Of a stretch of DNA of 64,000 nt, positions 34,363-49,488 are shown in pieces. A model generated the notes under the pieces. That model saw only the letters and a program-made list of their open reading frames with translations. It had not been told where the DNA came from and ran no database searches. How positions within the stretch are numbered: the stretch's first letter is position 1; each line of letters opens with the position of its first letter. Position numbers and translations under genes: made by a program. Source of the stretch: an uncultured Eubacteriales bacterium (GTDB lineage Bacteria; Acidobacteriota; Aminicenantia; Aminicenantales; UBA8522); assembly GCA_964558915.1 (NCBI GenBank), contig CAZLFV010000001.1, forward strand, positions 6,313 to 70,312, given 5' to 3'.

Positions 34363-35070
34363 CTATCCGGGCATTTTGGGGTCAAGAATGATAATAATTT
34401 TATCGATATCGAGGTGAAAAGCGGACGGCTCAAGGGCTTCTTGAGAAATGGGGTGAAGGACGGAGCAGCATGGAACGGTCATGATTGAAACGATGAGGGA
34501 TTTTATATTGTTCTCATAAAAAATCTCGGCCGACTTATCCACATATCGGTTTGTATCATCGAGCTTGGGGCAAGCGATAATAGGCCTCTTGCCCTCAGGG
34601 AGGTCGTGGTGGAGACTTGCAAGGGGGAAAGCTGTGCAATCGGTGGCGAGTAGTCAATCGGAAGACTTAAACTTGGGCGCGTGGGGAGACTCCAGATGTA
34701 GCTGGATCGGCCAATGGCGGAGCTCGGAGGCGCCAAAAATGGGGTTTTGATGTGTGTCCGCGGGAACTCCATGCCCCTTTCCTGCGGCCGTGGTTCCCCT
34801 TCTGAAAAGGGCTTGTTCATAAGTCGCGGCAGGGTTATAGGCTTCGCTTTGCCTCTCGACTATTGCAAGGGGTCTTGTTGGGCAGACGTCCGAACGGACC
34901 CGCATCCGGTCGCAATAGATTTCTTTCAACAGAACAGCCCCGTTTTCCTTATCTAAGGCGAGGGCTACTCGCCCGCGCAAGCTGTCGTATAAAGTCCGCA
35001 GCCGTTCCAGTTCTCCCAGCAAATTTCGATAATTTTCCTTTTGGGCACTCCAGTCCTCTTTTTTTGGCAA
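34363..35070 (-). pseudogene. Decayed 4Fe-4S dicluster protein gene (WPxQLHL...CPKLDD...VPCC family)
   Basis: In-frame TGA at 34654-34656 splits ...HWPIQLHLESPHAPKFKSSD from LLATDCTAFP...IIACPKLDD...MTVPCCSVL. The second cluster motif reads CDRMRVRSDVCP, with ligand Cys lost. The first cluster motif is visible only in another frame (NGCGLYTTAC). Confidence 0.55.
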
Positions 35071-35126
35071 ATCTCACCAAAGGATATGATTCGCCTTTCG
35101 GCCAGTCTTTGATTAAAGTCAAAAAG

Positions 35127-35639
35127 TCAAGAGGAAAGCGCCTTCCGCATTTTCAGGCATTCTCGGACCTGGATTTGTTTCCCCCGGACTTCAATCAGGC
35201 CTTCCTCCTGCATTTCCCTCGGATTTCTGGAGAGAGCCGGGCTAATTGTGCCCAAAAGCCTGGCCAGGTCAGATTTCTTGATACCGAGTTCCACAAGGCA
35301 GGCCTTCTCTCCCTGGCATTGAGAAAGGAGATACTGAATCAGCCTCTGCCTGACCGTCCGATGACCGAGAGATTCAATCCGTTCGTTGAGAACGAGGCAT
35401 TTTCTCGCCAGCAAGACAAGAAAAAAGCGGCCCAAATAGGTATCGGTTTTGACTTTCTTAAAGAAGGTTCTAGTTCCACCTCCCGGCCTTTTTCGTCCAT
35501 TTTGAAAACGCGGACCTGCCCTTTGAGGATATAAAAAACCAGTGGCGTTCTGCTCGGCCTTGAAAACGACGGCATTTTTGGGGTATGCCCTGGTGGTTCC
35601 CAGAGCCATAGTTTTGCTGTGCAGACTCTCACTCTTCAT
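35127..35639 (-). pseudogene. Frameshifted Crp/Fnr-family regulator
   Basis: The C-terminal HTH (RTVRQRLIQYLL...KSDLARLLGTISPALSR) is in one frame. The cNMP-binding beta-roll (FYILKGQVRVFKMDEKGREVEL) is in another (ORF 35339..35632). At least two frameshifts. Confidence 0.6.
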
Positions 35640-35718
35640 CGGCCTCTCCCCCGCCCGAATACTTGGCCTTTTTGAAGAAGTGTTGTAAATTATTGATAAT
35701 AAACAAGATAATTGGCTC

Positions 35719-36528
35719 TCACGAGCGATCGACCGGAAGAATCAGGCAGGTGGGGCCTCCCCTGCCCTTGAGAAACTCTGATAGGCCAAGAGTGCGGACA
35801 GTGAATCCGGCCAGGCGAAGGCTCTGCGCGGCCAGAGCGTTTCTTTTTTCGACAATAACCGTCTTGTCTCCCAGGGCAATGACATTGGCGCTCGATGATT
35901 CATTCTCATGGATTTCGATTGTGGCAATTCCCCGGAAAAAGTCTTTGGGAAACATACCTTGATAGCACAGGACCGTGTCGGAGCTGACCATGCTCATGGC
36001 GCCGCCGAGGTGCAAGTGGGTCGGCGGCAGAATGATCGTCCTCACTTCATAGTCCATTCGGGCGAGGAGCCGTGACAATTGACTTGCACCAGAGGAATTC
36101 GTTCTCTCGGAGCGTCCGATAAAAGCCGCCTTGCCGGCCAGGATGACGTCTCCCCCTTCAACGCTCCCCGGCGCTTCGATCTTGCCGGCGCAGGGTACCT
36201 TGAGAGAATCCAGGGCCGCAGCAGCCCAGGCTTCCTCTCCCCGTCTTGTTCGAAGTCCCATCCTCAGCTGAATATACCCTTTGGGCGTGACCAGGCTTGT
36301 GTCCCGGACGAAAACAGAATTCGGGTGGCCGGACAGCTCTTTGATCTTGACCACCTGGCTGCCCGATGCCTTGAGCAACCCCTGGAGCTTGCGGTGTTCG
36401 GCCAAGGCTTTTGTCCGGTCAGCAACCTGCCCGATGTTATGTTCCTTCAGATTGGCTACACTAAAGTACTCTCTATTTGGTTCACAGACTACGACGCGCT
36501 GCAACTTGTGACCTTCGTTTTTGACCAT
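35719..36528 (-). CDS. Amidinotransferase-superfamily hydrolase (dimethylarginine dimethylaminohydrolase-like)
   Basis: 269 aa. NSVFVRD, HLHLGGAMS and C-terminal GGPTCL (catalytic Cys) pattern of the DDAH/ADI fold. Confidence 0.7.
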   Translation of the reverse strand: MVKNEGHKLQRVVVCEPNREYFSVANLKEHNIGQVADRTKALAEHRKLQGLLKASGSQVVKIKELSGHPNSVFVRDTSLVTPKGYIQLRMGLRTRRGEEAWAAAALDSLKVPCAGKIEAPGSVEGGDVILAGKAAFIGRSERTNSSGASQLSRLLARMDYEVRTIILPPTHLHLGGAMSMVSSDTVLCYQGMFPKDFFRGIATIEIHENESSSANVIALGDKTVIVEKRNALAAQSLRLAGFTVRTLGLSEFLKGRGGPTCLILPVDRS

Positions 36529-36569
36529 GTTGTTTTGCTTTCTCCAAATCTCCCGAATCCCGCGATTTT

Positions 36570-38567
36570 TTAGTATCGCTTGAGTTTGAAGCTCGAGGCA
36601 ATCTGACGCACGATTTTTGGGGCCTTCTTCCCCTCGACTGTCCAGACGAAAACTTCAAGGCCGCGGCCGATGGCCGCTGCTGATTTCAGGCCCTGGGGAG
36701 AATCGGCGTAAAAAATTCTGTGATGCCGCGCTCTTCCTTTCTCGCGGCGGCCATGTGGCACGAGCTTCTCCAGAATCTTCCACATTCTCTGCTCCGCGTC
36801 CTGCCAGGGGAATATTACCTGCTGCTCTAGCACGGCTTTTGTCCCGTCCGGACCTTCGAGCCCCATAACCGTCGGGTTTGGCCAGGTGGCGTCGAGCCCA
36901 GAAAATCGGAAATCAGCCGGTTTCTTGACCTTGACCCCAAGCCAAGGATTATCATACCAGTTGTCCTTGATCTCAAAGGGTTTTGCTCCAGCGGGAACAA
37001 TATAGGTTATTCTCGCGATCTTATACTCGAGGATTTCGATTCCGACCTGGCCGAAAACTTGTTGAGCGGAGCCAAGCGCAATTTCCCCCCAGCCGTCTAT
37101 TAGCGATGAAGAGGCACAATAAAAGCGGGTTGCGTCGGCGACTCCTTCATTGACGATGGCCGCGTCCAGCGGTATCCACTTCTCCCCTACTCTGATTTCT
37201 GTCCAGGCGTGGCCCCCGAACATTCCAAGGGCATAGACGTATCCCATAACCACTCTTGAGGGTATCCTGGCGGCGCGGGCCAAAGAGGCCAGCAGCGTGG
37301 CGTAGCCGATACAGGTTCCGCGGCGGTCTCGGAAAATCTCCGTCGCCGGCGCAAAAGCAATACCCAAATCAAATTTCATGTTTTCGGCCACCCAGCGTTC
37401 CAGGGTGAGCGCCGCGGATAGAATATCCTTATGCTTGGCCACGAGCCGCTTAGCCAAGTCTTCAATCCCCGGATCATCGGATTGGATATAAACGTTGGGT
37501 TTGAGGTAGGCGCTGTTTTCCTCGGTCATGGCCACGGGAAAGCTCAATCCTTTGGCCCGCTTGGGCCGCTGGATTTCGAGGTCGAGCGTTTTTTCAGTTT
37601 GGGCAAGAACTTTCTGGGTTGGGCCGTTCATGTCGGGCCAGCCCAGACCCGGATTCTTATGGCTCAGCCTGAGCCTCATCCTGTCGATGGTCTTCGCTCG
37701 GGGAAGGCGGATATTCGCTGGCACGATCGACCTCTTATAAATCTCTTCCGGAAGCTCTCCTCCAGCCGCTGCTGCCAGGGCTGTTGCCTTATCCGAACGC
37801 AGAGCCTCTGTCGTGCCAAAAGGCCCTGATTCCTCCTGTTTAACAACATTTCCAAGCCGGTCGAGCCAGACAGTGCGCTTGACGGCCACGCCTGAGAAAA
37901 TCTCTTCAATCTTAAGCGCGGGGACATTCTCATCTCCCACCGCGAGCGTTTCCTCGGAAATCAGAGTCCTTTCCAACTGACTCACCCGGGAAGCTTCGGG
38001 AATGAAGGTCTGGGCGGTGACCTTATCGCCGGGATTTTTGAGTCCCAGTACGGAGAGCCTACGGATTCCCTCCGGGCCATAAAGCTCGCCCGCGTAATTC
38101 AGGGTGCGAACATATTTTTTCCCTCCAGCATCGCTCTGGATCTCGATCATCCCCGGGGTGATAAGGGCTTCCGCGCTTGTTTTCTGATTGGAGGCCGTCA
38201 TTTCAGATTGAACGGCCCGGAGCCGGCCCTCAACGGATTCCTCTGCGGTGGAGACAAACCCGAGTTCCACTTTGACGGCAAGGCGGTTAAGCACCAGCCG
38301 CATTTCCGAGGCAGTTTGAAGTACGCTGCCTTCGCCTTCCGGGGTGAGAACGGGCAAGGTGCGGAGGTTCTCGTGATAATATCCTACCGTATTGCCGCCG
38401 ATTTTTATGACATACCAGACGTCGTGCCCGGTTTGGGGCTGGCCTTGAGGAAGGGTCCCGGCACAGGGGGGCGGTGCAATCTGCAGGATGAAAATAAAAA
38501 CCGGGATAAAAACTGCAGCAAAACGAAATTTCACCCGGCCCACAGCGAACCTAAAAATTGAGTTCAT
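36570..38567 (-). CDS. Secreted transglutaminase-like cysteine protease domain protein
   Basis: 665 aa, signal peptide. C-terminal core RRGTCIGYATLLASLARAARIPSRVV...GGHAWTEI...PLDA (Cys-His-Asp). Confidence 0.8.
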   Translation of the reverse strand: MNSIFRFAVGRVKFRFAAVFIPVFIFILQIAPPPCAGTLPQGQPQTGHDVWYVIKIGGNTVGYYHENLRTLPVLTPEGEGSVLQTASEMRLVLNRLAVKVELGFVSTAEESVEGRLRAVQSEMTASNQKTSAEALITPGMIEIQSDAGGKKYVRTLNYAGELYGPEGIRRLSVLGLKNPGDKVTAQTFIPEASRVSQLERTLISEETLAVGDENVPALKIEEIFSGVAVKRTVWLDRLGNVVKQEESGPFGTTEALRSDKATALAAAAGGELPEEIYKRSIVPANIRLPRAKTIDRMRLRLSHKNPGLGWPDMNGPTQKVLAQTEKTLDLEIQRPKRAKGLSFPVAMTEENSAYLKPNVYIQSDDPGIEDLAKRLVAKHKDILSAALTLERWVAENMKFDLGIAFAPATEIFRDRRGTCIGYATLLASLARAARIPSRVVMGYVYALGMFGGHAWTEIRVGEKWIPLDAAIVNEGVADATRFYCASSSLIDGWGEIALGSAQQVFGQVGIEILEYKIARITYIVPAGAKPFEIKDNWYDNPWLGVKVKKPADFRFSGLDATWPNPTVMGLEGPDGTKAVLEQQVIFPWQDAEQRMWKILEKLVPHGRREKGRARHHRIFYADSPQGLKSAAAIGRGLEVFVWTVEGKKAPKIVRQIASSFKLKRY

Positions 38568-38752
38568 ATCGTGTTATCTCAAGGACGTTATTTTGCCCCG
38601 ACCGCCATTATAGTTTATCCCTATCGCCCGGGTTGAGGCAACATCGCCGAATAAAAAGCAAGCTTCTCTGGGAATACGGGGTTGGGAAAGGGCGAGAGCA
38701 GTTGCCTTAGGGGGAATTTTTAACTGACGCGATAAGTAGTAAGGGCGGACGT

Positions 38753-38869
38753 TTAGCAGACCGGACGCCGGCGCCTGCGGTTTTTGATGAGACGGCTGGT
38801 CAATACAGCCAAACCTCCGATCATCAGGCCGACAAGCCCGAACAATTTCCAGTTTCGGACCTTTAGCAT
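38753..38869 (-). CDS. Possible 38-aa single-pass membrane peptide (copy A)
   Basis: GGAGGAG SD 4 nt before ATG. MLKVRNWKLFGLVGLMIGGLAVLTSRLIKNRRRRRPVC. Identical ORF in copy B. Short, unverified. Confidence 0.3.
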   Translation of the reverse strand: MLKVRNWKLFGLVGLMIGGLAVLTSRLIKNRRRRRPVC

Positions 38870-38960
38870 CTGACTCCTCCGCTAATTTTGTCGCAGGACG
38901 GCCTTTTTTATGGACCAAATGGCTGTGGCCATAATCTGGCCGGATCAGTCCTCAGTATTT

Positions 38961-39320
38961 TTATCGAAATAGTATGCTATATTTCACAGCCTTTGAGCAG
39001 GTGGCGAATGGACGAAGCCTATCTCTTGTACCTTCCCATGACCTGACCCTGGGCGAGGATGTGCCCCTCCATGGCTTTGAGGAGCTCCGCCTTGGTCGCT
39101 CCAGCGGGGAAGCCGAGGACCGTGTCCAGAGCGTAGAGCTTGAAATAATATCTGTGCGTTCCGCCGGGAGGTTGGAGATGACCCAATGGACCCAGGTCCC
39201 CATCGGGGCATCGGGGTCGTCGCTGATCAAGGCGAAACTCTGAGTTTCCGCGGGCGCTCCGGACCACGAAAGAGGTGGCGAGAGATCCGCCCCGTCGCAA
39301 GTGTAGCGGCGGGGAATCAT
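38961..39320 (-). pseudogene. PEBP (YbhB/YbcL) family gene, internally deleted and 5'-truncated copy
   Basis: Matches 45199..45660 but lacks 115 nt (equivalent to 45352-45466), which shifts the frame. The two halves appear as ORFs 38961..39320 and 39019..39300. The first 14 codons and the SD are also missing. Confidence 0.85.
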
Positions 39321-39323
39321 CCC

Positions 39324-39550
39324 TTAAATTTTTCCTCGATAATGCTTCGTTTCACCTTCAAAGTGGGGGTGATTTCTCCCTTTCCAATATCAAAATCCCG
39401 GTCGAGAAGGGCGATTTTCTTGATTTTTTCATACGGGGCAAGATGGGGCGTGCTCCTGTCCACCTCTTCCAGCAAAAAGTCCCGAATGGCCTCTTTTTGG
39501 ACCGGCTCTTTCGGGCTGATATAAGAGACATTCTTCAGCTTGGCATATTC
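39324..39550 (-). pseudogene. 3'-terminal fragment of a long-chain acyl-CoA synthetase gene
   Basis: Encodes ...[78 protein letters not shown], homologous to the C-terminus of 45739..47517. No upstream part. Confidence 0.8.
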
Positions 39551-39623
39551 TTCGCTTCACGGCTCCTCCCCGTCTAAGCTCAGGCCAGTGGCTTCGAAAC
39601 CAGGCTCGTTTTACCCTGGCAGC

Positions 39624-39647
39624 CGCAACCTTGAGGTTGCGTTTTTT
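39624..39647 (+). terminator. Rho-independent terminator-like hairpin with no + strand gene upstream
   Basis: CGCAACC-TTGA-GGTTGCG followed by TTTTTT. A second 8-bp hairpin TCGCAAGC-TAAA-GCTTGCGA lies at 39652-39671. Confidence 0.5.
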
Positions 39648-39880
39648 AAAATCGCAAGCTAAAGCTTGCGACTACCAAGGCTTGCTTTTTCTATTCGCGG
39701 AGCCGTGCTCGCTCGTCCCTCCACGGGTTTTTTCAACTACTCGCTTTCGCCTTATCCCCAGATACCTCGCTGCGAGCGGGGCCTGGGGCTCCGCAGTGCC
39801 ACCCAAGTTTGATGACAGCTAAATTATCATAGAAAAAAGACGATTAAGGCAAAAACGTATCCCAAAAAGCTGTTGTTTTT

Positions 39881-39929
39881 TTGACATTTGCCTCAAGATG
39901 GCTTAAAATTTGTAACTAAAATAATTACG
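39881..39929 (+). promoter_or_regulatory. Promoter of the Rrf2 gene with operator-like half-palindrome
   Basis: TTGACA (39881-39886), 17 nt, TAAAAT (39904-39909). TGTAACTAA-A-ATAATTACG at 39911-39929 has 6/9 symmetric positions. Its left half is identical to the perfect palindrome at 42995. Confidence 0.5.
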
Positions 39930-39945
39930 TTTTTGCCACAATGCC

Positions 39946-40353
39946 ATGAAGTTACAAGCAAGAATAAGATACGCTATTCGGATCCTGGTCGAGATCGGGA
40001 AAAATCCGGACATACCTCTTTCCCTGCCGATAGTCGAAGAAAAACAGCACATTTCTGCGAAGTATGCCAGGCAAATCCTCCAGCCTCTTGAAGACAAAAG
40101 AATTGTCGGGAGCAGGCGTGGAATGAAGGGTGGATATTTTCTAAAGAAAAAAGCATCCAAGATTTCATTAATGGAGGTGATTGCTGCTTTAGCGGAAAAG
40201 GTGAAAGTTGCCCCCTGCCTGGAAACACCCGGAATCTGCGAACGAGAGGAAGTCTGCGGCGCTAAGACAAAGTGGGAAGATCTTCAGGGCCTGATTGAGA
40301 AGTTCTTCAAAAAGACGACAATCCAGGACGTGATCGACCGGGAAAGAGAGTAG
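39946..40353 (+). CDS. Rrf2-family transcriptional regulator with three-Cys cluster-binding motif
   Basis: 135 aa. MKLQARIRYAIRILVEIG wHTH N-terminus, then CLETPGICEREEVCG (C-x6-C-x6-C, close to the IscR C-x5-C-x5-C Cys spacing). Confidence 0.85.
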   Translation: MKLQARIRYAIRILVEIGKNPDIPLSLPIVEEKQHISAKYARQILQPLEDKRIVGSRRGMKGGYFLKKKASKISLMEVIAALAEKVKVAPCLETPGICEREEVCGAKTKWEDLQGLIEKFFKKTTIQDVIDRERE

Positions 40354-40361
40354 TCTCCGTT

Positions 40362-41171
40362 TTAGCGGCGGGCGGCCATGGTTTCTTCCAATCGCAGTCC
40401 TTTATTTTTGAAATAATCACTGATATATTTTCTCCCGATTGTTTCAAGTTTCGGCTTGATCGAATTCACCGTCATTTCAGCGGTCATCTCTTCCTTGACG
40501 TTGAAGAAATTCCGCTTCCAGTGAATCAGATAACCTGAGAGGCAGATGGGCTGGTATCTTTTATAGAACCTTTTGTTGAAGACGTCGAAGATAGACTTCT
40601 TTTTTCGGTCTAGGCTGTTGAAGTCGATCCTGGCCCCCAAACCCAGAAGCTCATCCCGGCGTTCCCTGCGCGTCTTGAAATTATAGAGGACGGGAAGATA
40701 GCTCACCCTGTATTCTCTGGCAAAACTCTTAATGACTTCCAAAAATTCGGGATAATTATCGGCTGTTGCCAATACTCGCTCTCCGTCCGGGGCCTGCTCC
40801 CAGTTGGCGCCATCCGTGAATTCTGGGATCTCATTTTCCAGGGCATAGATAATGCTCTGCAGCATCATCGACGCCCTGCAGGGGACGCACCAGGCAATCT
40901 CACTGCCGTACTGGCTCTTTGTCTCTTTATAGGTTTTGACCGCCATCTCTTTGAATAGCTCTTTGATCTCGATAAATGAATAAATGAATTTATTTTCCCC
41001 GTGAAGGCTCTTGAGCAGGCCGATATTGGCTTGATTCGCCTTCAAAGCGAAATGAAGATAGCCTTTGTTGAAGGTTACCAGGTGAACCCTGTCGTATTGA
41101 GGTGCAAGATAATGGGCGGCGTACAAAGAATCAATCCCGCCTGAAAACTGGATAATGACTTCTTTTTTCAA
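40362..41171 (-). CDS. PP-loop ATP pyrophosphatase superfamily protein, unassigned subfamily (putative sulfurtransferase)
   Basis: 269 aa, TTG start after AGGAG. SGGIDS at residues 10-15, CVPC motif mid-protein, third Cys in QPICLSGY. Confidence 0.7.
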   Translation of the reverse strand: MKKEVIIQFSGGIDSLYAAHYLAPQYDRVHLVTFNKGYLHFALKANQANIGLLKSLHGENKFIYSFIEIKELFKEMAVKTYKETKSQYGSEIAWCVPCRASMMLQSIIYALENEIPEFTDGANWEQAPDGERVLATADNYPEFLEVIKSFAREYRVSYLPVLYNFKTRRERRDELLGLGARIDFNSLDRKKKSIFDVFNKRFYKRYQPICLSGYLIHWKRNFFNVKEEMTAEMTVNSIKPKLETIGRKYISDYFKNKGLRLEETMAARR

Positions 41172-41186
41172 TTTTTTCTCCTAGAT

Positions 41187-41558
41187 TCAGAGGAAGGTTA
41201 AACCCTCAAAAATAAGGAACGAGGCCAGAACCAGGGTGCCGAACACAATCAGGTTGAAATATTTATAGACGGCTCCCGCAAGCGAAGAGGAAAAACCCAT
41301 CAGTCTTCCGCCTACCTTGCATCTGGTCGCTGAATCAAAAAGGAAAGGCTCATTGAGGATTCTATCGATCAACCCGCTCTCCAATTGTATGAAAGTTTTT
41401 AAAGCTCTGAGTCGCCTGGCGGCAAGGGTTGGGCTGAACAAACTGCCCACGGATAAAAGTGCGACGCGGAGGCCGCCAAAAGCTCCAACCATAAGGAACA
41501 GGGCCACTGGCAGAATCATCCATTGCTTTTTTCTTTTTCTCAACGCGCAGCAGGCCAT
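41187..41558 (-). CDS. Small membrane protein (123 aa), unknown function
   Basis: GGAGGAGG SD 4 nt before ATG. N-terminal MACCALRKRKK then a hydrophobic helix, with a second hydrophobic helix at the C-terminus. Packed 13 and 15 nt from its neighbours. Confidence 0.5.
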   Translation of the reverse strand: MACCALRKRKKQWMILPVALFLMVGAFGGLRVALLSVGSLFSPTLAARRLRALKTFIQLESGLIDRILNEPFLFDSATRCKVGGRLMGFSSSLAGAVYKYFNLIVFGTLVLASFLIFEGLTFL

Positions 41559-41571
41559 CGATCCTCCTCCT

Positions 41572-42795
41572 TTAGTGTCTAAAAAATTTCAGGACGCTTC
41601 GCAGTGAGCGGACCATTGTATCGATCTCTTCAAAGGTGTTGTAGACGCCGAAAGAAAACCTCAGAGAGTCAGGCTTTTTGTGGCTGTTGTACCAGGAATG
41701 GAGGCAGTGCTTTCCATAGCGGGCCATGATGTTTTCGGATTCGTTCAATATTTTGGAAGCGTCGGCCACAGGAATCCCCTCGATCCAGAGGTTGGTGATT
41801 CCGGAACGCAGCCGGGAGTCCAGCGGGCCGATGAATTGAACTCCGCGGATCTCAGACAGCCGGCTTGTAGCATGGGCATTGAGCTCTTTGATGTGCTCGT
41901 AGATATTTTCTTGCCCGATTTTGCGGATATAATCCACAGCAACGCCGGCTCCGATAGCTCCCGCATAGTCCTGTAACCCCGCTTCAAACTTGTCGGGAAG
42001 CGGCGAGATCTTTGCCGAGCCATAGGTAATGTCTTCGACCGTGCCTCCTCCGGCCAGAAATTGGGGAAGCTTATCCAGAAGCTCCTTTTTCCCGTAAAGG
42101 ATACCGGTCCCTGTTGGGCCCAACATCTTATGGACTGAGGCCACCATGAAATCGATGTCGAGCTTTTGGACATCGATGGGCCGGGAGAGGGCCGCCTGGG
42201 CGGCATCCACGCAAACCCAGGCCTCGTTTTTATGGGCGATCTGAATTATGTCTTCGATGGGAAAAGTAACGCCGGACAGGTTTGAAGTGTGGAGCACGGA
42301 CACGACTTTGACTTCCGGAGTCATCCGCTCTCGATACTTGTCCAGGTTAAAGGTTGTATCCGGATTTGTGGGGATGATCAGCCTTTGGATCTTTTTCTTT
42401 TTCTCGAGGAGCTGCCAGGGGAGAAGGTTTGAGTTATGTTCGATGTCTGAAGTGACAACAATATCGCCGGGGTTGAATTCGATGGTGTTAGCCAGGAGGT
42501 TAAGACCTTCGGTGGCGTTGCGGACAAAGATAATTTCTTCGGGATAGGCGGTATTAAAAAATTTGGCGATTTTTTTTCGAGCTTCTCCGTATTTTTTAGA
42601 GGTCTCGGAACCAAACCAATGATCGGTCCGGCCGTGGCAGCCCGGAAAATTATTGTAATAATCGAGAATGGCTTCGGTCACAGGCCTAGGCTTGAGAGTC
42701 ATGCAGGCGTTGTCAAAGTAGATAAGGGGCTTTTTTTTGATCGTCTGGTGCAGGGGAGCAAAGTCATCTCTCAGCTTGTGTACATTCAAGCTCAT
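41572..42795 (-). CDS. Cysteine desulfurase, SufS/CsdA-like (class V aminotransferase)
   Basis: 407 aa. YFDNA start region, PLP-Lys in ASVHKMLGPTGTGILYG, catalytic Cys loop RYGKHCLHSW (compare SufS RxGHHCA). Confidence 0.85.
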   Translation of the reverse strand: MSLNVHKLRDDFAPLHQTIKKKPLIYFDNACMTLKPRPVTEAILDYYNNFPGCHGRTDHWFGSETSKKYGEARKKIAKFFNTAYPEEIIFVRNATEGLNLLANTIEFNPGDIVVTSDIEHNSNLLPWQLLEKKKKIQRLIIPTNPDTTFNLDKYRERMTPEVKVVSVLHTSNLSGVTFPIEDIIQIAHKNEAWVCVDAAQAALSRPIDVQKLDIDFMVASVHKMLGPTGTGILYGKKELLDKLPQFLAGGGTVEDITYGSAKISPLPDKFEAGLQDYAGAIGAGVAVDYIRKIGQENIYEHIKELNAHATSRLSEIRGVQFIGPLDSRLRSGITNLWIEGIPVADASKILNESENIMARYGKHCLHSWYNSHKKPDSLRFSFGVYNTFEEIDTMVRSLRSVLKFFRH

Positions 42796-42973
42796 TAAGA
42801 CTTCATCCTTCGGTTGTTTTTAATTAAATTGGCAGCTGAATACATTTCAATATTCCCTCTCCCTGCCGAAATCGTTGAAAAAGGATATCCGTTAGAATTG
42901 TTTTCATCAGTTACGCTCGAGGTCAGCTTTATACTCGGCTCGCCATAAATCTAAAAGCGTTCCAATTCTTGAC

Positions 42974-43021
42974 TTTAGCTCGTTCGAGCTAAATTGTAAC
43001 TAAATTAGTTACATTTGTCAA
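42974..43021 (-). promoter_or_regulatory. Promoter of the desulfurase operon with two adjacent perfect palindromes
   Basis: Minus strand: TTGACA (43016-43021), 17 nt, TACAAT (42993-42998). The perfect palindrome TGTAACTAA-A-TTAGTTACA (42995-43013) fills the spacer. A second perfect palindrome TTTAGCTCG-TT-CGAGCTAAA lies at 42974-42993. Confidence 0.6.
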
Positions 43022-43069
43022 TCAGATATTGTATCCAAAGAATAAAATTGACGGAATCTTGCCGATGAA

Positions 43070-43684
43070 ATGGATTGTTTGGCTGACAATCCCTTTTTGT
43101 TCTGGGGGAGAATTAGACGGCTGATGGAAGAAGATTTGAAGCATCGGGGCAATACTCTGGCGTCATTGGCGCCAGACGAAATTATGGGCTGGAAGGCAAA
43201 GGAAGAACGGACCTATGATCCGCGGACAATTTTTGATTATATCGACGGTGCCGGGGAAGTCTACCGGTCCTATAATTTCAAAAATTTGCTCGCCCGTCGG
43301 TTTGAAAAGGAAGGGCAGACAGACCCAGTCGTTGATTTTTTTGATATGGGGCTGGCGAGCGATGCCTTCGGTGTCTTCACCCATGACCTCTAAGGAGAGG
43401 ATCCTGGCATCGGCCAGGGCTCAGCCTATAAAGGAGGATTGCTTTCTTTCTGGAAGGCATGAATCGGACCGACCTGCGCGAGGACTTCCCCTGGGGAGGG
43501 CTCGAACGGGGAGGTTTAAGCACACATTTCTTCCCCGGCACTTTTTTTTAATTCTTCGGGTAAAAGAGCTCGAGAGCAAATAGTGATTTATCCCGAGGCC
43601 CTGGCCGAAGCCCCGTTAACCGCGCCCTTTGATGCTGAAAAACGACCATGGGCTCTTTGGTTTTCTAGATGTGTTTAGGCCATA
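43070..43684 (+). pseudogene. Disrupted hypothetical gene at right edge of the cassette
   Basis: The 107-aa ORF ends at TAA 43391. The reading continues in the same frame as GEDPGIGQGSAYKGGLLSFWKA, then stops. Further protein-like stretches follow in other frames up to the duplication boundary. Confidence 0.4.
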
Positions 43685-43870
43685 CCGGGATTTTTGAGTC
43701 CTAGAACGGAGAGCCTACGGATTCCCTCCGGGCCATAAAGCTCGCCCGGGTTGAGGCAACATCGCCGAATAAAAAGCAAGCTTCTCTGGGAATGCGGGGT
43801 TGGGAAAGGGCGAGAGCAGTTGCCTTAGGGGGAATTTTTAACTGACGCGATAAGTAGTAAGGGCGGACGT

Positions 43871-43987
43871 TTAGCAGACCGGACGCCGGCGCCTGCGGTT
43901 TTTGATGAGACGGCTGGTCAATACAGCCAAACCTCCGATCATCAGGCCGACAAGCCCGAACAATTTCCAGTTTCGGACCTTTAGCAT
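43871..43987 (-). CDS. Possible 38-aa single-pass membrane peptide (copy B)
   Basis: Identical coding sequence to 38753..38869. One substitution lies in the SD-ATG spacer. Confidence 0.3.
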   Translation of the reverse strand: MLKVRNWKLFGLVGLMIGGLAVLTSRLIKNRRRRRPVC

Positions 43988-44137
43988 CTGGCTCCTCCGC
44001 TAATTTTGTCGCAGGACGGCCTTTTTTGGTGGACGAAATCGGCCTGGCTGGGAGCGCCTGTGAGAGCTGCTGTTCGTACCAGACCTCTGCTCTTTTGCTT
44101 ACCAGCGCGGACGGAGAGGGACAGCCCTGCTTTCAAT

Positions 44138-45133
44138 TCAGGTTTTGTGCTCTAAAGAAACGTTGTCGAGATAATCCAGCTCGTCCTTGGTCAGCTGGAT
44201 TTTCATACTTTCTGCGTTCTCCGTGGCCTGGGTGGTCCGAGTCGCGCCCGGGATGGCAACGACTGTCTCTCCACGTGAGTGAATCACCCAGCTGAGGGCG
44301 ACCTCGGCGAGCGAGCCGTTGTGGTGTTGCGCGACCTCCCGCAACGCCGCGATCACGGGCCGGGAGCGCTCAAGGCCCTTGGGCCTGAATGCGGACAAGT
44401 ATTTTCTGTAACCGCCTCTGCTCCGGATCAATCCCGGATTCTCATGGAATTTTCCAGAGAGAAGCCCTTGGGCCAATGGAGAATACGCGATGATAGAAAT
44501 TCCGAGCTCGCGGGCTGTTTCCAGAATGCCGTTCTGCTCGATTCTCCGGTCGAGCAAACTGTAGCGGACCTGATTTGAGACAAGCTGCAGGCCTTCGTTC
44601 TGGAGGAGCCGATGCGAGACTCTCATCTGCTTGGCTGAAAAATTGCTGACTCCGATATAGCGAATTTTACGATTCCGGACCAGCCCAGCCATGGATTCGA
44701 CCTGCTTCTCAATCGAGGAAAAAGAAAAAGGATTGTGGATTTGATAGAGGTCTATAGGAAAACCGGCCAGCACTTCCAGCCTCCGGTCGATCGTTTTGGC
44801 GATCGACCTGGCCGTCCGGAAAATTGGCCGCCATTTGGTGGCGATGATGATATCTCCAGGGATTCTTCCCAATGTGTTGAGAGCTTGCGCAAGGGCTCTC
44901 TCTGATTCTCCAGCGCCGTAAGCTTCGGCCGTATCAAACCAATTCACCCCACCCCGGAGGCTGGCTTCAACGATTCCGGCAATCTCCGCTTCGGGCAAAT
45001 TGGGCCAATAGCGTCCGTTCAGTCCTCTGCCTCGGCTGAACTGCCAGCATCCCAGCCCGACCGGCGAGACCATCAGCTCGGATTGTCCCAGTCGTCTGAG
45101 AGGAGGAATGGATGCGGCCATAATCTTATCCAA
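44138..45133 (-). CDS. Aldo/keto reductase
   Basis: 331 aa (TTG 45133, alternative ATG 45121). GLGCWQF, FDTAEAYG, GVSNF and AYSPLAQG motifs. Confidence 0.85.
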   Translation of the reverse strand: MDKIMAASIPPLRRLGQSELMVSPVGLGCWQFSRGRGLNGRYWPNLPEAEIAGIVEASLRGGVNWFDTAEAYGAGESERALAQALNTLGRIPGDIIIATKWRPIFRTARSIAKTIDRRLEVLAGFPIDLYQIHNPFSFSSIEKQVESMAGLVRNRKIRYIGVSNFSAKQMRVSHRLLQNEGLQLVSNQVRYSLLDRRIEQNGILETARELGISIIAYSPLAQGLLSGKFHENPGLIRSRGGYRKYLSAFRPKGLERSRPVIAALREVAQHHNGSLAEVALSWVIHSRGETVVAIPGATRTTQATENAESMKIQLTKDELDYLDNVSLEHKT

Positions 45134-45198
45134 AATATTTCTATCGAAATAGTATGGTATATTTCACAGCCTTTGAGCAGGTGGCGAATGGACGAAGC

Positions 45199-45660
45199 CT
45201 ATCTCTTGTACCTTCCCATGACCTGACCCTGGGCGAGGATGTGCCCCTCCATGGCTTTGAGGAGCTCCGCCTTGGTCGCTCCAGCGGGGAAGCCGAGGAC
45301 CGTGTCCAGAGCGTAGAGCTTGAAATAATATCTGTGCGTTCCGCCGGGAGGACAGGGGCCACCGTAGCCGATCTTTCTGAAATCATTGCGACCCTGGCGG
45401 GCGCCATTTTTAAGGTCCTTTTCGGGCGGGACCGCTTCGTGGAGTTCGCTCGCGCTCGCCGGCAGGTTGTAGATAACCCAATGGACCCAGGTCCCCATCG
45501 GGGCATCGGGGTCGTCGCTGATCAAGGCGAAACTCTGAGTTTCCGCGGGCGCTCCGGACCACGAAAGAGGTGGCGAGAGATCCGCCCCGTCGCAAGTGTA
45601 GCGGCGGGGAATCATCCCCCCTTCTTCAAATGCAGTGCTGGTGATTTTTAGGTCCATCAT
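45199..45660 (-). CDS. PEBP-family protein (YbhB/YbcL, Raf kinase inhibitor-like)
   Basis: Start set at ATG 45660 after [20 protein letters not shown] and [20 protein letters not shown] signatures. The longer ORF to 45735 would add a hydrophobic leader, so a secreted form cannot be excluded. Confidence 0.85.
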   Translation of the reverse strand: MMDLKITSTAFEEGGMIPRRYTCDGADLSPPLSWSGAPAETQSFALISDDPDAPMGTWVHWVIYNLPASASELHEAVPPEKDLKNGARQGRNDFRKIGYGGPCPPGGTHRYYFKLYALDTVLGFPAGATKAELLKAMEGHILAQGQVMGRYKR

Positions 45661-45738
45661 CTCTCCTCCTCTAGAGAAAATTGTCCCTATAAACATCAAG
45701 AGAATGGTCGGCCAGAGGCATTGCCTTTGATGCATCTC

Positions 45739-47517
45739 TCACTCCTTGTAGAGAGAGTCGATCACACCCTTAAATTTTTCCTCGATAATGCTTCGTTTCA
45801 CCTTCAAAGTGGGGGTGATTTCTCCCTTTCCAATATCAAAATCCCGGTCGAGAAGGGCGATTTTCTTGATTTTTTCATACGGGGCAAGATGGGGCGTGCT
45901 CCTGTCCACCTCTTCCAGCAAAAAGTCCCGAATGGCCTCTTTTTGGAGCAGGTCTTTGGCGCCGGCATAAGGAATGTTCTTGAGCTTGGCGTAATCCTCG
46001 AGTTTTTCGAGATCCGGGACGATGAGGGCCGAGATGAATTTTCTTTTGCCGCCGATGACCACGGCGTTCAGGATGTACGAATTTTGCTTGAGCATGTTCT
46101 CGATCGGCTGCGGAGCGATGTTTTTTCCGCCCGAGGTGATAATCAAGTCTTTTTTCCTGTCGGTGATGGTGAGGAAGCCCTGGTCATCGAGATGACCGAT
46201 GTCTCCTGTCTGGAGCCAGCCGTCCAGCAGAGTTTCCCGCGTCTCCTCCTCTTTCTTGTAATAGCCCCTCATAATGTTTGGTCCCCGGGCCAGGATCTCT
46301 CCGTCAGGCGCAATCTTCACCTCTACGCCCGGGATAGGCTTTCCCACTGTTCCGAATTTCAGGTCATTGAACGTATTCACGGCAATCACCGGGGAGCTTT
46401 CGGTTAGGCCATAGCCTTCCAAGACGACCAGGCCCAGGGCGAAAAAAAACTCGGCGATGTCCTTTGACAGCGGCGCTCCTCCGGAGACGAAGAAGCGGAC
46501 CCGGCCGCCGGTTTTTTCGAGAATCTTGGAGAAGACGAGCTTACGAGCGAGGTTGGCGCGGAAGCGAAGGGAGCCTGAGACAGGCTGATGAAAAAAGCTT
46601 TTTTCGCGATATTGCTTCCCTGTTTTAACGGCCCAGAAAAAGATCTTTTTTTTCAACCCGGACCCGGCCAGAATCGTGTCCATGACCTTGGCGTAGATCT
46701 TTTCAAAAAGCCGGGGGACGCTAACCATAATGGTTGGCCGAACCTCGATCAGGTTGTCGGCCACAGTCTCGACGCTTTCGGCATAGGCGATGGAACAGCC
46801 TTTATAGAGGAAGGCAAAGATAACCAGCCGCTCGAGCACGTGGGAAAGGGGAAGGAACGACAAGTCTGTATCTTTATCTCCGAAATCAATAATTGAAGCG
46901 AGTGTCTTGATATTGCTGACGAAGTTAGCGTGAGTGAGCATGACTCCCTTGGGAATCCCCGTCGTGCCGGAGGTATAGATAATGGAAGCGAGATCATCCG
47001 GTTTGACAGTAAGGACGATTTCTTCAAAAAGGCCGGGACGTTGGGCCTGGATTTTTTCTCCGCGCTCCAGGATTTGCGACAGGGGCAATAGTCCGTCCTG
47101 AGTCTGGGTCTCAAAGGTGATGAAATTTCTCACTAAGGGCAGGTCCTTTTTTACGGCTGCCACTTTCTCCCAAAGTGCTGGTCCGGACACAATAACGACC
47201 TTGGCGTCCGAGTCATTGATGATATATTTGACTTGTTCAGGGACCAGTGAGGTGTAGACTGGAACCGTTATCCCTCCAAGAGAGAGAACGGCGTAATCCG
47301 TGATTGTCCATTCGGGGCCATTATCGGCAAGAAGAATCACCTTGTCGCCATGGCTCACGCCTAACTCGTGCAGCCCCAGGGCCAGGCGGATGACCCTGTT
47401 TCTGAATTCTTCCGTGGAGATGGAGACATAGCGCCCCTCTTTTTTGGACAGCATAATGTCCGGCTTGGGATATGATTTGGTCAGATGAAGAAACATTTGC
47501 GGAAGGGTATCGGTCAT
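45739..47517 (-). CDS. Long-chain-fatty-acid--CoA ligase (AMP-forming)
   Basis: 592 aa. AMP-binding motif IIYTSGTTGIPKGVMLTH, GYGLTESS, TGDIG...DRKKDLI. Confidence 0.9.
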   Translation of the reverse strand: MTDTLPQMFLHLTKSYPKPDIMLSKKEGRYVSISTEEFRNRVIRLALGLHELGVSHGDKVILLADNGPEWTITDYAVLSLGGITVPVYTSLVPEQVKYIINDSDAKVVIVSGPALWEKVAAVKKDLPLVRNFITFETQTQDGLLPLSQILERGEKIQAQRPGLFEEIVLTVKPDDLASIIYTSGTTGIPKGVMLTHANFVSNIKTLASIIDFGDKDTDLSFLPLSHVLERLVIFAFLYKGCSIAYAESVETVADNLIEVRPTIMVSVPRLFEKIYAKVMDTILAGSGLKKKIFFWAVKTGKQYREKSFFHQPVSGSLRFRANLARKLVFSKILEKTGGRVRFFVSGGAPLSKDIAEFFFALGLVVLEGYGLTESSPVIAVNTFNDLKFGTVGKPIPGVEVKIAPDGEILARGPNIMRGYYKKEEETRETLLDGWLQTGDIGHLDDQGFLTITDRKKDLIITSGGKNIAPQPIENMLKQNSYILNAVVIGGKRKFISALIVPDLEKLEDYAKLKNIPYAGAKDLLQKEAIRDFLLEEVDRSTPHLAPYEKIKKIALLDRDFDIGKGEITPTLKVKRSIIEEKFKGVIDSLYKE

Positions 47518-47625
47518 GGATTCCTCCTTCTGTCATTAAGATACAAAAAAATGACCCTGTTTGTCTAACTCTTGTAAAAAAACCTGCAAAAGAATAACCT
47601 AAGGAGAGAAATTTTCTAAGAACCG

Positions 47626-49386
47626 ATGGCTCACAAGATCGAAATCCTGTCCCATGGCCGGATAATCAAGGCCAAAGAAAAAGAGGTTCTGGCCGATGCG
47701 ATCCACCGGGCCGGCATCCCCTTGAGCCTCTACTGCGACAAGCGTGGTCTGTGCGGGAAGTGCTTTATTGAGATCCTCAGGGGCCCGCGGCCGCCTCTCG
47801 GCGAAAAAGAAGAGTTCTGGGTCAAGCAGAAAACCCTAGGGAAAAACTACAGGTTGGCCTGCCAATACAGAGTCAGCAAGGATCTCGTGATCAATGTGCC
47901 TGCTCTGTTCACGTCTCGAGCTGCGCCGGTGCTTCCGGCCATCCCGCGGTCGGCCTTTCCTCCTGACCCCGCGGTCAAAAAATATTTTCTTGAAGTTGAG
48001 GCACCGGATATCGTCTCTCCTCATTCTCTTTTCGATAAGCTCGTAGAGAATCTCGGATCCAGGCATCTGGACATTCCCGTCGAGGTGCTGAATGCGCTGG
48101 GGCGAACCTTGGCGAAAGGACGGCACAAAGTGACCGTGACGGTATATCGGGAAAAGGAAATCCTCGCCGTGGAGCCCGGAAACACGATCGACCAGAACTT
48201 CGGGCTGGCCGTTGACATCGGAACGACGACTCTGGTTATGGACCTTGTTGACGTGAATTTCGGGAAAACGCTGGATACCGTGGCCGCTCTGAACAACCAG
48301 GTGACGCGGGGAGCAGACGTGATCTCGCGGATTGCCTATGCAACTCTTGCTCCCCAAAACGCTGTCGAACTCAGGAGCGTGGTCCTGGAAGCTCTGAACG
48401 GGATGATCGGACGAATTCTCGCGAAAAATGGCCTCTCCCCTAACTCGGTGTATGAAGTCGTTGTCTCTGCCAACACAACCATGAATCACCTGCTCCTTGG
48501 AATTCCTGTCGATACTCTTGCCGTGGCTCCTTATCATGCCGTCTTTTCCCGTCTTCCGGCGCTCTCAGCGCGGCAGGTGGGTTTTGACGTTCATCCGCAG
48601 GGCAAGGTCTATTTGGCGCCGAACATCAAAAGCTTTGTCGGTGGAGATATCGCTTCCGGCCTCCTGGCTGCGCGGGTGTCTTCAAAGAGGGAGAATTTTC
48701 TCTTCATTGACCTGGGGACAAACGGCGAGATTGTCCTCAAAGCCGGGCCCAAGCTCCTAGCCACCTCGACTGCGGCAGGCCCGGCCTTTGAGGGGATGAA
48801 CATCAGCTGCGGAATGCCGGCGCTTCCGGGCGCCATATATAGGGCTGAGGAGGGGCGGACGATCAAAACATATACGCTTGGGAACACGCCGTCGCGGGGG
48901 GTCTGCGGGACCGGCCTGATTGACCTCGTTGCCCTTTTTCTTAAAAGGGGTTTGATCTCGCCGCGCGGAACGATCCGAGGCTCGGCAAAAAAAATCCGGG
49001 TCAAACGAAACATTGTTTTTACGCAGGAGGACATCCGGCAGATGCAGCTGGCCTGCGCCGCCATTAAGACAGGAATCCGGATGATGCTCAAGGCTAATCA
49101 TCTCGCGGAGCGAGACTTGCACGGGATCTATATTGCCGGCGCCTTCGGTAATTATCTGAATATCAAGAATAGCATGGCGATCGGGCTTTTGCCCCGGGTT
49201 GAGGAGCGCAAACTCGCCTTCATCGGAAATTCTTCTCTTGCCGGGGCCAGACTCCTTCTGATCTCCGCCCCAGAAAGAGAGAGGATCGAGTCCCTGACTC
49301 AGAAGGTCGAGTATGTTTCCCTGGCCGCCAACCATAAATTCCAGGAGCATTTCATCAAGGCTCTGCAATTTGAACCCTGGCCTTAG
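47626..49386 (+). CDS. RACo-like protein: plant-type [2Fe-2S] ferredoxin domain fused to ASKHA (DUF4445) ATPase domain
   Basis: 586 aa. N-terminal CDKRGLCGKCFIEI...LACQ, central DIGTTT and DLGTNGE ASKHA phosphate motifs, as in reductive activators of corrinoid proteins. Confidence 0.75.
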   Translation: MAHKIEILSHGRIIKAKEKEVLADAIHRAGIPLSLYCDKRGLCGKCFIEILRGPRPPLGEKEEFWVKQKTLGKNYRLACQYRVSKDLVINVPALFTSRAAPVLPAIPRSAFPPDPAVKKYFLEVEAPDIVSPHSLFDKLVENLGSRHLDIPVEVLNALGRTLAKGRHKVTVTVYREKEILAVEPGNTIDQNFGLAVDIGTTTLVMDLVDVNFGKTLDTVAALNNQVTRGADVISRIAYATLAPQNAVELRSVVLEALNGMIGRILAKNGLSPNSVYEVVVSANTTMNHLLLGIPVDTLAVAPYHAVFSRLPALSARQVGFDVHPQGKVYLAPNIKSFVGGDIASGLLAARVSSKRENFLFIDLGTNGEIVLKAGPKLLATSTAAGPAFEGMNISCGMPALPGAIYRAEEGRTIKTYTLGNTPSRGVCGTGLIDLVALFLKRGLISPRGTIRGSAKKIRVKRNIVFTQEDIRQMQLACAAIKTGIRMMLKANHLAERDLHGIYIAGAFGNYLNIKNSMAIGLLPRVEERKLAFIGNSSLAGARLLLISAPERERIESLTQKVEYVSLAANHKFQEHFIKALQFEPWP

Positions 49387-49488
49387 GGAGCAGTGAAATC
49401 GTTATTCTCCGGAGTTCGGAACTCAATGAGATTTCGGCCGTCTGCCGGCGTCGACGAAGATCTTCTCCACTCGATGTCAAGAACTAAA

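Follow-up and report, generated by a model that had tools for sequence, protein, structure and literature searches.

A direct duplication of a five-gene segment bracketing a sulfur-metabolism operon in an uncultured Aminicenantes bacterium

Related duplications and integrants in bacteria

Duplicated bacterial genes such as tufA and tufB undergo concerted evolution by gene conversion. Short-junction tandem duplications, which are formed by illegitimate joints and later shortened by deletions at microhomologies, were reportedly described for Salmonella and E. coli by the Roth and Andersson laboratories. The merodiploid duplications that arise during transformation span 100–900 kb, carry IS-derived repeats at their borders and are unstable in the laboratory (Johnston et al. 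2013, PMC3784515). Homology-facilitated illegitimate recombination integrates non-homologous DNA by illegitimate joining beside a homologous stretch (PMC3240628). It normally yields an insertion plus a deletion and not a flanking duplication.

The locus described here was found on contig CAZLFV010000001.1 (GCA_964558915.1) of an uncultured, metagenome-derived Aminicenantes bacterium, of which a stretch of 64,000 nt (the window) was analyzed. A 4.1-kb sulfur-metabolism operon is flanked there by two direct copies of a five-gene segment of approximately 2.9 kb. As for tufA/tufB, the interiors of the two copies are nearly identical, their edges are diverged and strain differences occur in tracts; in contrast, one partner is a decayed pseudogene copy. 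Illegitimate joints and remodelling by deletion are shared with the short-junction tandem duplications. However, the present locus is an evolutionary fossil in metagenomes, whose larger precursor would have to be deduced. With Campbell-type integrants and merodiploids it has in common the direct duplication on both sides of an insert, the reciprocal truncation and the possible loss by recombination between the repeats, whereas a vector or circle is not evident, the insert is a piece of a different chromosomal locus from the same lineage and both joins are non-homologous. One intact and one disrupted gene copy, free to decay, are also seen in transformation merodiploids, but our duplication measures only 2.9 kb, includes 4.1 kb of relocated DNA at its joint, lacks repeats at its borders and has become fixed in natural populations (compare PMC3784515). 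Exogenous DNA as in homology-facilitated illegitimate recombination is not evident. As a bacterial rearrangement the scar is of a common type, and it reveals no new kind of biological system.

Repeat architecture and decay of the two copies

The repeats were mapped by a repeat search and by self-BLASTN of the whole window. This analysis confirmed the large direct duplication around a 4.1-kb cassette that the initial annotation had reported, and it resolved copy A (38029–39557) and copy B (43685–46003) into five collinear direct-repeat blocks of 93–99% identity (E-values 1e-23 to 1e-149). No other repeats were detected over the full 64 kb. Positions 38029–38092 of copy A correspond to 43685–43748 of copy B (97% identity), 38624–38923 to 43742–44043 (98%), 38956–39171 to 45136–45351 (99%), 39162–39323 to 45457–45618 (98%) and 39321–39554 to 45767–46000 (93%). 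Homology extends about 55 nt beyond the previously assigned end points 39500 and 45946, and this extension is approximately 25% diverged. The duplicated segment reaches from inside a gene for a transglutaminase-like protein (TGase) to inside an acyl-CoA synthetase (ACS) gene. Copy A is a patchwork in which the 5' part of the TGase gene and a small open reading frame are kept, while aldo/keto reductase (AKR), PEBP-family and ACS genes are reduced to remnants. Copy B contains a scrap of the TGase gene, the small reading frame, intact AKR and PEBP genes and the 3' end of the intact ACS gene. This gene content, with an intact TGase gene at copy A and intact AKR, PEBP and ACS genes at copy B, agrees with the initial annotation.

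The intact TGase gene (36570–38567; minus strand, like all genes and gene remnants of the segment) encodes 665 amino acids (PF01841) and has orthologues in the related contigs L009 and L010; copy A includes no more of it than the 5' 539 nt. In copy B a scrap of 64 nt (43685–43748, codons 160–180) is joined straight to the small-ORF block through a 538-bp deletion. The small ORF encodes a conserved membrane peptide of 38 amino acids (MLKVRNWKLFGLVGLMIGGLAVLTSRLIKNRRRRRPVC), has an orthologue of the same length in L009 and is intact in both copies (38753–38869 and 43871–43987), whereas every other complete gene survives only once. The AKR gene (44138–45121; 327 amino acids, PF00248) is intact in copy B, and an identical product is encoded on 7 contigs. 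From copy A a net 1062 bp comprising the AKR body is missing; the AKR start codon region is kept in a diverged edge (38905–38955), which has changes peculiar to A and others peculiar to B. The intact PEBP gene (45199–45735) shares an identical 66-nt tract (45226–45291) with its pseudogene copy. This remnant (39019–39320) consists of the C-terminal 50 codons, a frameshifting 115-bp deletion and part of the N-terminal half. A further deletion of 151 bp removed the PEBP signal and start region together with the ACS stop codon. The ACS gene itself (45739–47517; 592 amino acids, AMP-binding, PF00501) is intact. Its 3' fragment in copy A (39321–39557) matches copy B exactly over a 180-nt core, and in the terminal 57 nt (39501–39557), which are about 25% diverged, an ACS-like peptide is still readable.

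Three of the deletions lie between direct repeats of 5–9 nt, namely the 7-nt repeats TCGCCCG at the 538-bp, GCCGG[G/C]AGG at the 115-bp and CCCTT at the 151-bp deletion joint. The decay of each redundant copy that had been proposed earlier is seen as gene loss by deletion. Copy A of contigs L096 and L090 may lack the 151-bp deletion; if so, this deletion was a separate, later event. The pseudogene fragments at 38905–39557, 43124–43456 and 43685–43748 should not be called genes by annotators.

The same structure was recovered from other samples. The 30.8-kb contig L089 (ERZ781360) is continuous through the cassette and differs from window positions 34000–51171 by 2 mismatches without gaps. Junctions are also covered by contigs from four further samples (L090, L091, L096 and L097), and the joins 39557/39558 and 43684/43685 are identical wherever they are covered. 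In L096, additional SNPs split repeat block D1 into stretches of at most 112 nt. The resulting phasing connects the TGase 5' part with the A-type remnants, and AKR with the joint of the 538-bp deletion, in agreement with the window, and thus rules out an intact chromosome accompanied by a separate circle. As judged from these contigs, the structure is a real chromosomal one and fixed in the species.

Content and origin of the insert

The insert begins with a filler of 313 nt (39558–39870) that contains back-to-back terminator-like hairpins, one of them at 39624–39641, and gives no alignment with the sequence upstream of Rrf2 in relatives. It is followed by intact genes for an Rrf2-family regulator (39946–40353, plus strand; 135 amino acids, PF02082, TIGR00738), a PP-loop protein (adenine nucleotide alpha-hydrolase, QueC-like; 40362–41171, minus strand; 269 amino acids) from a family mostly confined to Aminicenantes, and a SufS-family cysteine desulfurase (41572–42795, minus strand; 407 amino acids, PF00266, TIGR01979). 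A predicted membrane protein of 123 amino acids without family assignment is encoded between the latter two (41187–41558, minus strand). The initial annotation had noticed this cassette, a terminator and a broken gene. The broken gene is a truncated DUF6599 gene (43124–43456, plus strand; PF20244) which comprises codons 1–111 of a 279-codon gene, as determined by tblastn against the full-length gene of L092, and carries a nonsense mutation (in-frame stop at 43391–43393). A second filler of 226 nt (43459–43684) completes the insert. Neither filler had a match among the sequences compared. The join of ACS-internal sequence to the insert (39557/39558) and that of the insert to TGase-internal sequence (43684/43685) are both without homology.

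The relatives L009 and L010 (78–91% protein identity to the window) exhibit a single ACS-PEBP-AKR-small ORF-TGase arrangement from which the cassette is absent, just as the initial annotation had predicted. Gene order in these relatives shows the single arrangement to be the ancestral state. Among Aminicenantes, the interval between ACS and TGase is variable.

For the operon the closest relatives are L092, L093 and L094, in which the PP-loop protein is 89% identical and the operon is located between a full-length gene for a 279-aa DUF6599 protein and a serine hydrolase gene. Homology of the window to this locus covers 39871–43458 and ends at DUF6599 codon 111; the DUF6599 fragment marks the right breakpoint within the native locus of the operon. 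The insert had been described as foreign. Three observations speak against this: it carries a fragment of its native neighbor, its divergence from the orthologous loci (81–82% nucleotide identity) resembles that of the flanks from L009 and L010 (80–87%), and its G+C content, which is lower than that of the flanks, is equally low at the native locus in L092 and L094. These comparisons identify the insert as a chromosomal operon of Aminicenantes (genes for Rrf2, a SufS-like desulfurase, a membrane protein and a PP-loop ATPase) plus the 5' third of DUF6599, with one breakpoint inside DUF6599 and the other upstream of Rrf2. The native operon locus of the organism itself was not found, the locus type being seen in relatives, and a search for a second genomic context of an identical cassette protein was negative.

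Age and mechanism of the rearrangement

Site patterns in copies A and B were polarised with two outgroups. In the block cores, 97 derived sites are common to both copies and only 6 differences were counted, all of them 5–52 nt from a block edge. At the edges the copies differ by about 25%, and each retains ancestral bases lost from the other. The terminal 57 nt contain no shared-derived, 12 A-unique and 4 B-unique sites and the edge at 38905–38955 contains 4 A-unique and 4 B-unique sites, both being small counts. The recency implied by the initial annotation on the basis of near-identity is contradicted by these diverged edges. Apparently the event is old, roughly of the age of the split from the nearest sampled relatives, and near-identity despite this age would be due to gene conversion between the copies, which seems to have homogenised the cores and maintained them at 98–100% identity. 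Under active gene conversion the near-identity of repeats can mislead on age. The 64-nt TGase scrap at the left end differs from copy A at only 2 sites, which is hard to reconcile with 25% divergence at the right end except by a recent conversion.

Strain differences point in the same direction. Window and L089 differ by only 2 SNPs over 17 kb, and differences among strains are concentrated in the repeats as short tracts. At 45226, 45235, 45289 and 45291 copy B of the window equals copy A in the derived state; at all four positions L096 and L097 have retained the outgroup base, as has L090 at 45226 and 45235. Similarly, A equals B at 38746, 38757 and 38760 in the window, and copy A of L096 differs there. 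The PEBP tract 45226–45291 is derived relative to other strains and outgroups and gives the substitution L149F. From this pattern, the decayed copy A appears to have donated the tract to the functional PEBP gene. Alternatively, assemblers that collapse repeat variants could in principle generate such A = B tracts.

The end of the duplicated segment is joined via the insert to its own start, in the same orientation and with joints that lack homology. The locus is probably best read as an old tandem duplication that received relocated chromosomal DNA at its join point by non-homologous joining. The segment of approximately 2.9 kb from TGase to ACS would have been tandemly duplicated with the 4.1-kb piece of another Aminicenantes locus at the join point, and we infer illegitimate or replicative joining, and not the integration of a circle, as the origin of the two novel joints. 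One possible route starts from a larger tandem duplication, from TGase to the original site of the operon, which a deletion with end points in ACS and upstream of Rrf2 later shortened. Alternatively, the operon may have been copied into the join point in one step, by template switching. Afterwards each redundant copy lost genes by deletion. The two fillers count against simple duplication plus trimming, from which they would be expected only if this lineage had different native flanks. An old duplication of this type would be a clean natural case of an operon that changed its chromosomal position without mobile-element machinery, and it would illustrate the reciprocal decay that follows such a duplication, by deletions at microhomologies.

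The initial annotation had proposed a Campbell-type insertion. In this model a non-replicating circle with the cassette and a TGase'-to-'ACS fragment of approximately 2.9 kb would have entered by one homologous crossover. The topological part of the proposal stands, since a duplicated segment with reciprocally truncated outer genes around inserted DNA is exactly the layout of a single-crossover integrant and relatives possess the single arrangement; both ends of L097, moreover, lie in one repeat block, with a unit of 6446 bp, as expected for a circle or a tandem repeat. The foreign insert and the recency did not hold up, and nothing points to a circular carrier. Both insert/duplication junctions lack homology, so that two illegitimate joins between two chromosomal loci would be needed to make such a circle before it could cross over, which gives three events compared with one or two. 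Among the annotated genes of the insert none is for replication, mobilisation or a recombinase, its content is native to the group, the L096 variants phase as a chromosomal tandem structure, and what lies between the copies is a chromosomal-locus fragment with a truncated neighbor gene and does not look like the remainder of a circular molecule. Consequently, we regard this explanation as doubtful.

Less probable still is a recent complex replicative event, in which a restarted fork copied B, skipped three segments at microhomologies and added the operon, identity then reflecting youth. The microhomology at the deletion joints, mismatches clustered near joints (read as error-prone synthesis) and the composite insert with its two unmatched fillers would suit this model. 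However, eight edge sites (4 in the tail, 4 at 38905–38955) have the outgroup base in A and a derived base in B. Where A is ancestral and B derived, copying errors from B cannot be the explanation. Divergence of 20–25% is also far above polymerase error, the nonsense codon in the DUF6599 fragment had to be acquired, and L096 and L090 may possess a copy A without the 151-bp deletion.

It is distinctly unlikely that copy A is a maintained partner which exchanges sequence with the functional genes, and that A and B bracket a 6.4-kb unit (PEBP, AKR, small ORF and sulfur operon) excisable and re-insertable via homologous recombination. If true, this would be an IS-free and recombinase-free excisable gene cassette in a phylum without cultured members.

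It is very improbable that the duplication is an assembly artefact, either because strain variants led the assembler along a wrong graph path or because an intact chromosome coexists with a separate small circular element. In favor of an artefact, the block cores exceed typical k-mers in length, the 151-bp site of L096 and L090 deviates from the window as it could after a bubble path, and L090 has a divergent end. Nevertheless, junctions and phasing recur in independent assemblies of five further samples with SPAdes- and MEGAHIT-style names, the L096 SNPs phase unambiguously across D1 and both joins are the same wherever covered, by which this objection, raised in the initial annotation, is largely excluded.

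Finally, it is hardly conceivable that a mobile element or genomic island inserted here and left the repeats behind, a view that the variable ACS-TGase interval and the low G+C content of the cassette might suggest: no integrase, transposase, relaxase, terminal inverted repeats, tRNA target, Rfam match or convincing terminal repeat was found at the locus (the earlier statement that the window lacks integrase and transposase holds), a 2.9-kb duplication is no target-site duplication, and the low G+C content is intrinsic to the operon in relatives.

The duplicated segment and its reproducibility

The organization of the duplicated region was determined by self-BLASTN of the whole window and by a repeat search of positions 36-48 kb. 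These comparisons revealed five collinear direct-repeat blocks and no other repeat in 64 kb: D5 (copy A 38029-38092, copy B 43685-43748, 97% identity), D1 (38624-38923 and 43742-44043, 98%), D3 (38956-39171 and 45136-45351, 99%), D4 (39162-39323 and 45457-45618, 98%) and D2 (39321-39554 and 45767-46000, 93%). Thus, the near-identical duplication in the same orientation around the cassette, as described in the initial annotation, was recovered in refined form. The A-to-B offset shifts from block to block (5656, 5118, 6180, 6295 and 6446 in the order given), which means that sequence is missing from each copy. A stretch of 538 bp is present in copy A only, and three stretches, in order a net 1062 bp, 115 bp and 151 bp, are missing from copy A relative to copy B.

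Pfam and NCBIfam agreed with the gene identities named before. These are the transglutaminase-like (TGase) gene (36570-38567, minus strand), the Rrf2 regulator (39946-40353, plus strand) and, all on the minus strand, the PP-loop/QueC-like protein (40362-41171), the SufS-family desulfurase (41572-42795), the aldo/keto reductase (AKR, 44138-45121), PEBP (45199-45735) and the acyl-CoA synthetase (ACS, 45739-47517). A 123-aa membrane protein is encoded at 41187-41558 on the minus strand, and the "broken gene" of the cassette represents the 5' portion of a DUF6599 gene (PF20244). Sequence searches with the PP-loop and 123-aa proteins against solved structures gave no useful assignment.

Complete genes are kept once each, TGase in copy A and AKR, PEBP and ACS in copy B. 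The only gene intact in both copies is a conserved 38-aa membrane ORF (38753-38869 and 43871-43987). It encodes a single-pass membrane protein with an arginine-rich tail and is conserved between the window and the cassette-free relative L009 (11706-11822). The 538-bp loss from copy B occurred between 7-nt repeats TCGCCCG (38086-38092 and 38624-38630), the 115-bp loss from copy A between GCCGG[G/C]AGG repeats and its 151-bp loss between CCCTT repeats. The AKR body is gone from copy A, and the flanks of this loss have diverged.

The same PP-loop and AKR products, residue for residue, were found on contigs from several samples and assemblers. The same-organism contig L089 (ERZ781360, SPAdes-style, 30.8 kb) matches window positions 34000-51171 with 2 mismatches and no gaps, and consequently contains both copies and every joint. 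Both cassette junctions are also covered by L090 (ERZ27245483, MEGAHIT style) and L097 (JGI 3300010324), the left one by L091 (Logan SRR5215464). The organism is present in JGI sample 3300025144 as well. Contig L096 (JGI 3300022551) runs from copy-B block D4 through AKR and the cassette into all of copy A and TGase. An intact chromosome accompanied by a separate 5-kb circle with all deleted variants was rejected on the phasing of L096. In this contig three extra SNPs split block D1 into identical stretches of at most 112 nt, and the contig connects the TGase 5' part with the A-type remnants, and AKR with the 538-bp-deleted joint. Thus, the tandem chromosomal arrangement stands. Copy A appears without the 151-bp deletion in L096 and in the last 13 nt of L090, which may be a graph-path artefact since identical stretches of 140 and 180 nt flank this site. 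At the end of L090 (1-490), past window position 45264, PEBP is only about 80% identical to that of the window; a chimeric join to sequence from a related species, or a recombinant allele of PEBP, would account for this end.

Cassette-free relatives and the source of the cassette

The genome collection contained distant relatives only, all of them Aminicenantes with 47-56% TGase protein identity and with other gene content between ACS and TGase. Scanning metagenomes with AKR yielded two closer loci, L009 and L010, with 78-91% protein identity to the window. Their gene order is RACo (reversed), ACS, PEBP, AKR, (rubrerythrin), 38-aa ORF, TGase and DDAH-like. Every gene of the ACS-TGase arrangement is present once and the cassette is absent, as had been predicted for relatives lacking it. 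The gene content of this interval differs among Aminicenantes: rubrerythrin lies between ACS/AKR and TGase in L009 (11001-11561), a radical-SAM gene and GH123 in L012 (11072-15681, with TGase in fragments), and an M28 peptidase and GH123 in L002 (3749-9655). The ACS/AKR-TGase interval is a local gene-turnover hotspot in Aminicenantes. The genes parA, parB, rho and lon (L089 17037-20810, approximately window 30.4-34.1 kb) lie 2.4-6 kb from the TGase-adjacent DDAH-like gene, and judged from this gene content the replication origin may be close to the TGase/DDAH locus.

Homologues of the PP-loop protein were found nearly exclusively in Aminicenantes. The closest (89% identity) belong to the loci L092, L093 and L094, where the four operon genes have a full-length DUF6599 gene (279 aa) on one side, followed by DUF362, and on the other a beta-lactamase/DUF3471-type serine hydrolase. 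Window positions 39871-42820 and 42988-43458 align to this native locus at 75-82%. The DUF6599 protein match covers residues 1-111 of 279, crosses an in-frame stop (43391-43393) and then ends suddenly. On the basis of this alignment and of the match ending at residue 111, the insert is a piece of a chromosomal locus, cut within DUF6599 and upstream of Rrf2. In the native loci L092 (5274-6497) and L093 (6029-7252) the desulfurase was called as two pieces (59 + 317 aa versus 407 aa) and may be broken there; the window and L094 carry an intact copy.

The cassette was initially regarded as foreign DNA. This view could not be upheld. The cassette is 81-82% identical to L092-L094 at the nucleotide level and the flanks are 80-87% identical to L009/L010, a comparable divergence. 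The G+C content is 47% for the cassette and 46% for the native locus of L092 and L094, so that composition is no mark of foreign origin.

An identical PP-loop protein in a second context was not present in the collection. Among intact DUF6599 sequences, identity to the fragment did not exceed 67%, the sole near-identical match being an 89-aa version of the fragment itself. Together with the passage of L089 through the cassette, this indicates that the operon appears to be single-copy in this organism. The best multi-sample candidate for the native site, the serine hydrolase P0125, was set aside, as it has a different context and no sample in common with the window organism. No integrase or transposase was found, in agreement with the earlier statement, and likewise no tRNA target, RNA family or convincing terminal repeat; Rfam and tRNA scans gave no match near the junctions. 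A 27-nt terminal inverted-repeat pair of the insert with 70% complementarity was judged to be due to chance.

The fillers at the ends of the insert (39558-39870 and 43459-43684) showed no match outside same-strain contigs in BLASTN and TBLASTX searches of 111 loci and the window. When the left filler was compared by MAFFT with the regions upstream of Rrf2 in L092-L094, only the last approximately 75 nt could be aligned; these correspond to the promoter and probable operator. The left filler contains several strong hairpins without an Rfam match, among them a plus-strand terminator (GCAACCTTGAGGTTGC, then T6) and, beside it, the hairpin TCGCAAGCT..AGCTTGCGA with a minus-strand T run after it. 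It looks like an intergenic region of convergent genes moved out of context. A near-palindromic motif, TTGTAACTAAA(T/A)TA(G/A)TTAC, at 39909-39927 and 42994-43013 overlaps the best sigma-70-like promoters of Rrf2 and of the desulfurase operon, and L092 and L093 share the 34 nt of 42988-43021 at 100% identity. This motif is probably the operator of the Rrf2 regulator, as predicted from sequence; if so, the cassette would be self-regulating.

Age of the copies and probable gene conversion

Site classes were derived from an alignment of copy A, copy B, L009 and L010; sites at which A equals B and differs from both outgroups were counted as shared-derived. The block cores contain 97 shared-derived, 4 A-unique and 2 B-unique sites, and all 6 A/B differences lie 5-52 nt from a block edge. 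The corresponding numbers are 0, 12 and 4 for the terminal 57 nt of copy A (39501-39557), which still translate as an ACS-like peptide, and 1, 4 and 4 for the edge at 38905-38955. Ancestral bases at the block edges were kept in copy A and lost from the functional copy B. Consequently, by the pattern of these sites, copy A is not a recent copy of present-day copy B, and the recent origin implied by near-identity does not hold. At 39500, 180 nt with 0 differences give way abruptly to 57 nt with about 14, a change that resembles the boundary of a conversion tract. In the 64-nt TGase scrap just 2 sites separate the copies, each copy having one derived base, and the scrap appears younger than the tail on the right.

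Comparison of the window with L089 over 17 kb gave 2 differing sites. A 66-nt tract inside the functional PEBP gene contains four sites (45226, 45235, 45289 and 45291) that distinguish L096 and L097 from the window. Here copy B of the window carries the derived bases of copy A, and the outgroup bases are retained in L096 and L097 and, at the first two sites, in L090. In the window the derived tract results in L149F. At 38746, 38757 and 38760 copies A and B of the window are equal and copy A of L096 differs. These between-strain differences point to gene conversion, as does the block-edge pattern, although in all these comparisons the site counts are small. Tracts in which A equals B may also result from homogenisation of repeat variants by the assembler.

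Formation of the duplication

The topology is that of a tandem duplication with extra DNA at the join point; a Campbell integrant is the same structure formed by another route. Homology is absent at both joints, ACS-internal/filler and filler/TGase-internal. In route (a) a larger tandem duplication would first have extended from inside TGase to inside DUF6599 at the original site of the operon, and a deletion from inside ACS to upstream of Rrf2 would then have trimmed it. Route (b) would consist of one replicative template-switching event. A lead favouring route (a) came from L099, a locus encoding an 81% identical PP-loop protein. Its operon lies approximately 3.6 kb upstream of a glycogen-type cluster (GH57, AmyA-like 4-alpha-glucanotransferase, GH57 branching enzyme and GlgC-like), and this cluster at L099 14801-20810 is syntenic with window 58425-64000. 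A native site of this type would be expected immediately to the right of the window and would share the orientation of the inserted operon; the GlgC contigs end within AmyA. The fillers without match fit route (b) or later turnover.

Single-crossover integration of a circle, as proposed initially, agrees with the topology and the single-copy relatives; its foreign DNA, circular carrier and recency were not borne out. With joints lacking homology, two chromosomal loci would first have to be linked by two illegitimate joins to form a circle, which a crossover would then insert; routes (a) and (b) need fewer events.

Duplications remodelled by deletion and the concerted evolution of tufA/tufB are parallels to the present locus. 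This kind of rearrangement is already known, and the locus is a new example. It is useful mainly as a detailed illustration of IS-free operon relocation, and also of repeat identity upheld by conversion. Transformation-induced merodiploids likewise keep one intact and one disrupted gene copy (PMC3784515). A further published parallel is homology-facilitated illegitimate recombination (PMC3240628).

Contigs from four samples (L108-L111) terminate within AmyA, at window 61846-61858, and three of these have a further end at 57395-57411. No repeat within the window explains these ends; a repeat in another part of the genome or structural variation between strains may be responsible.
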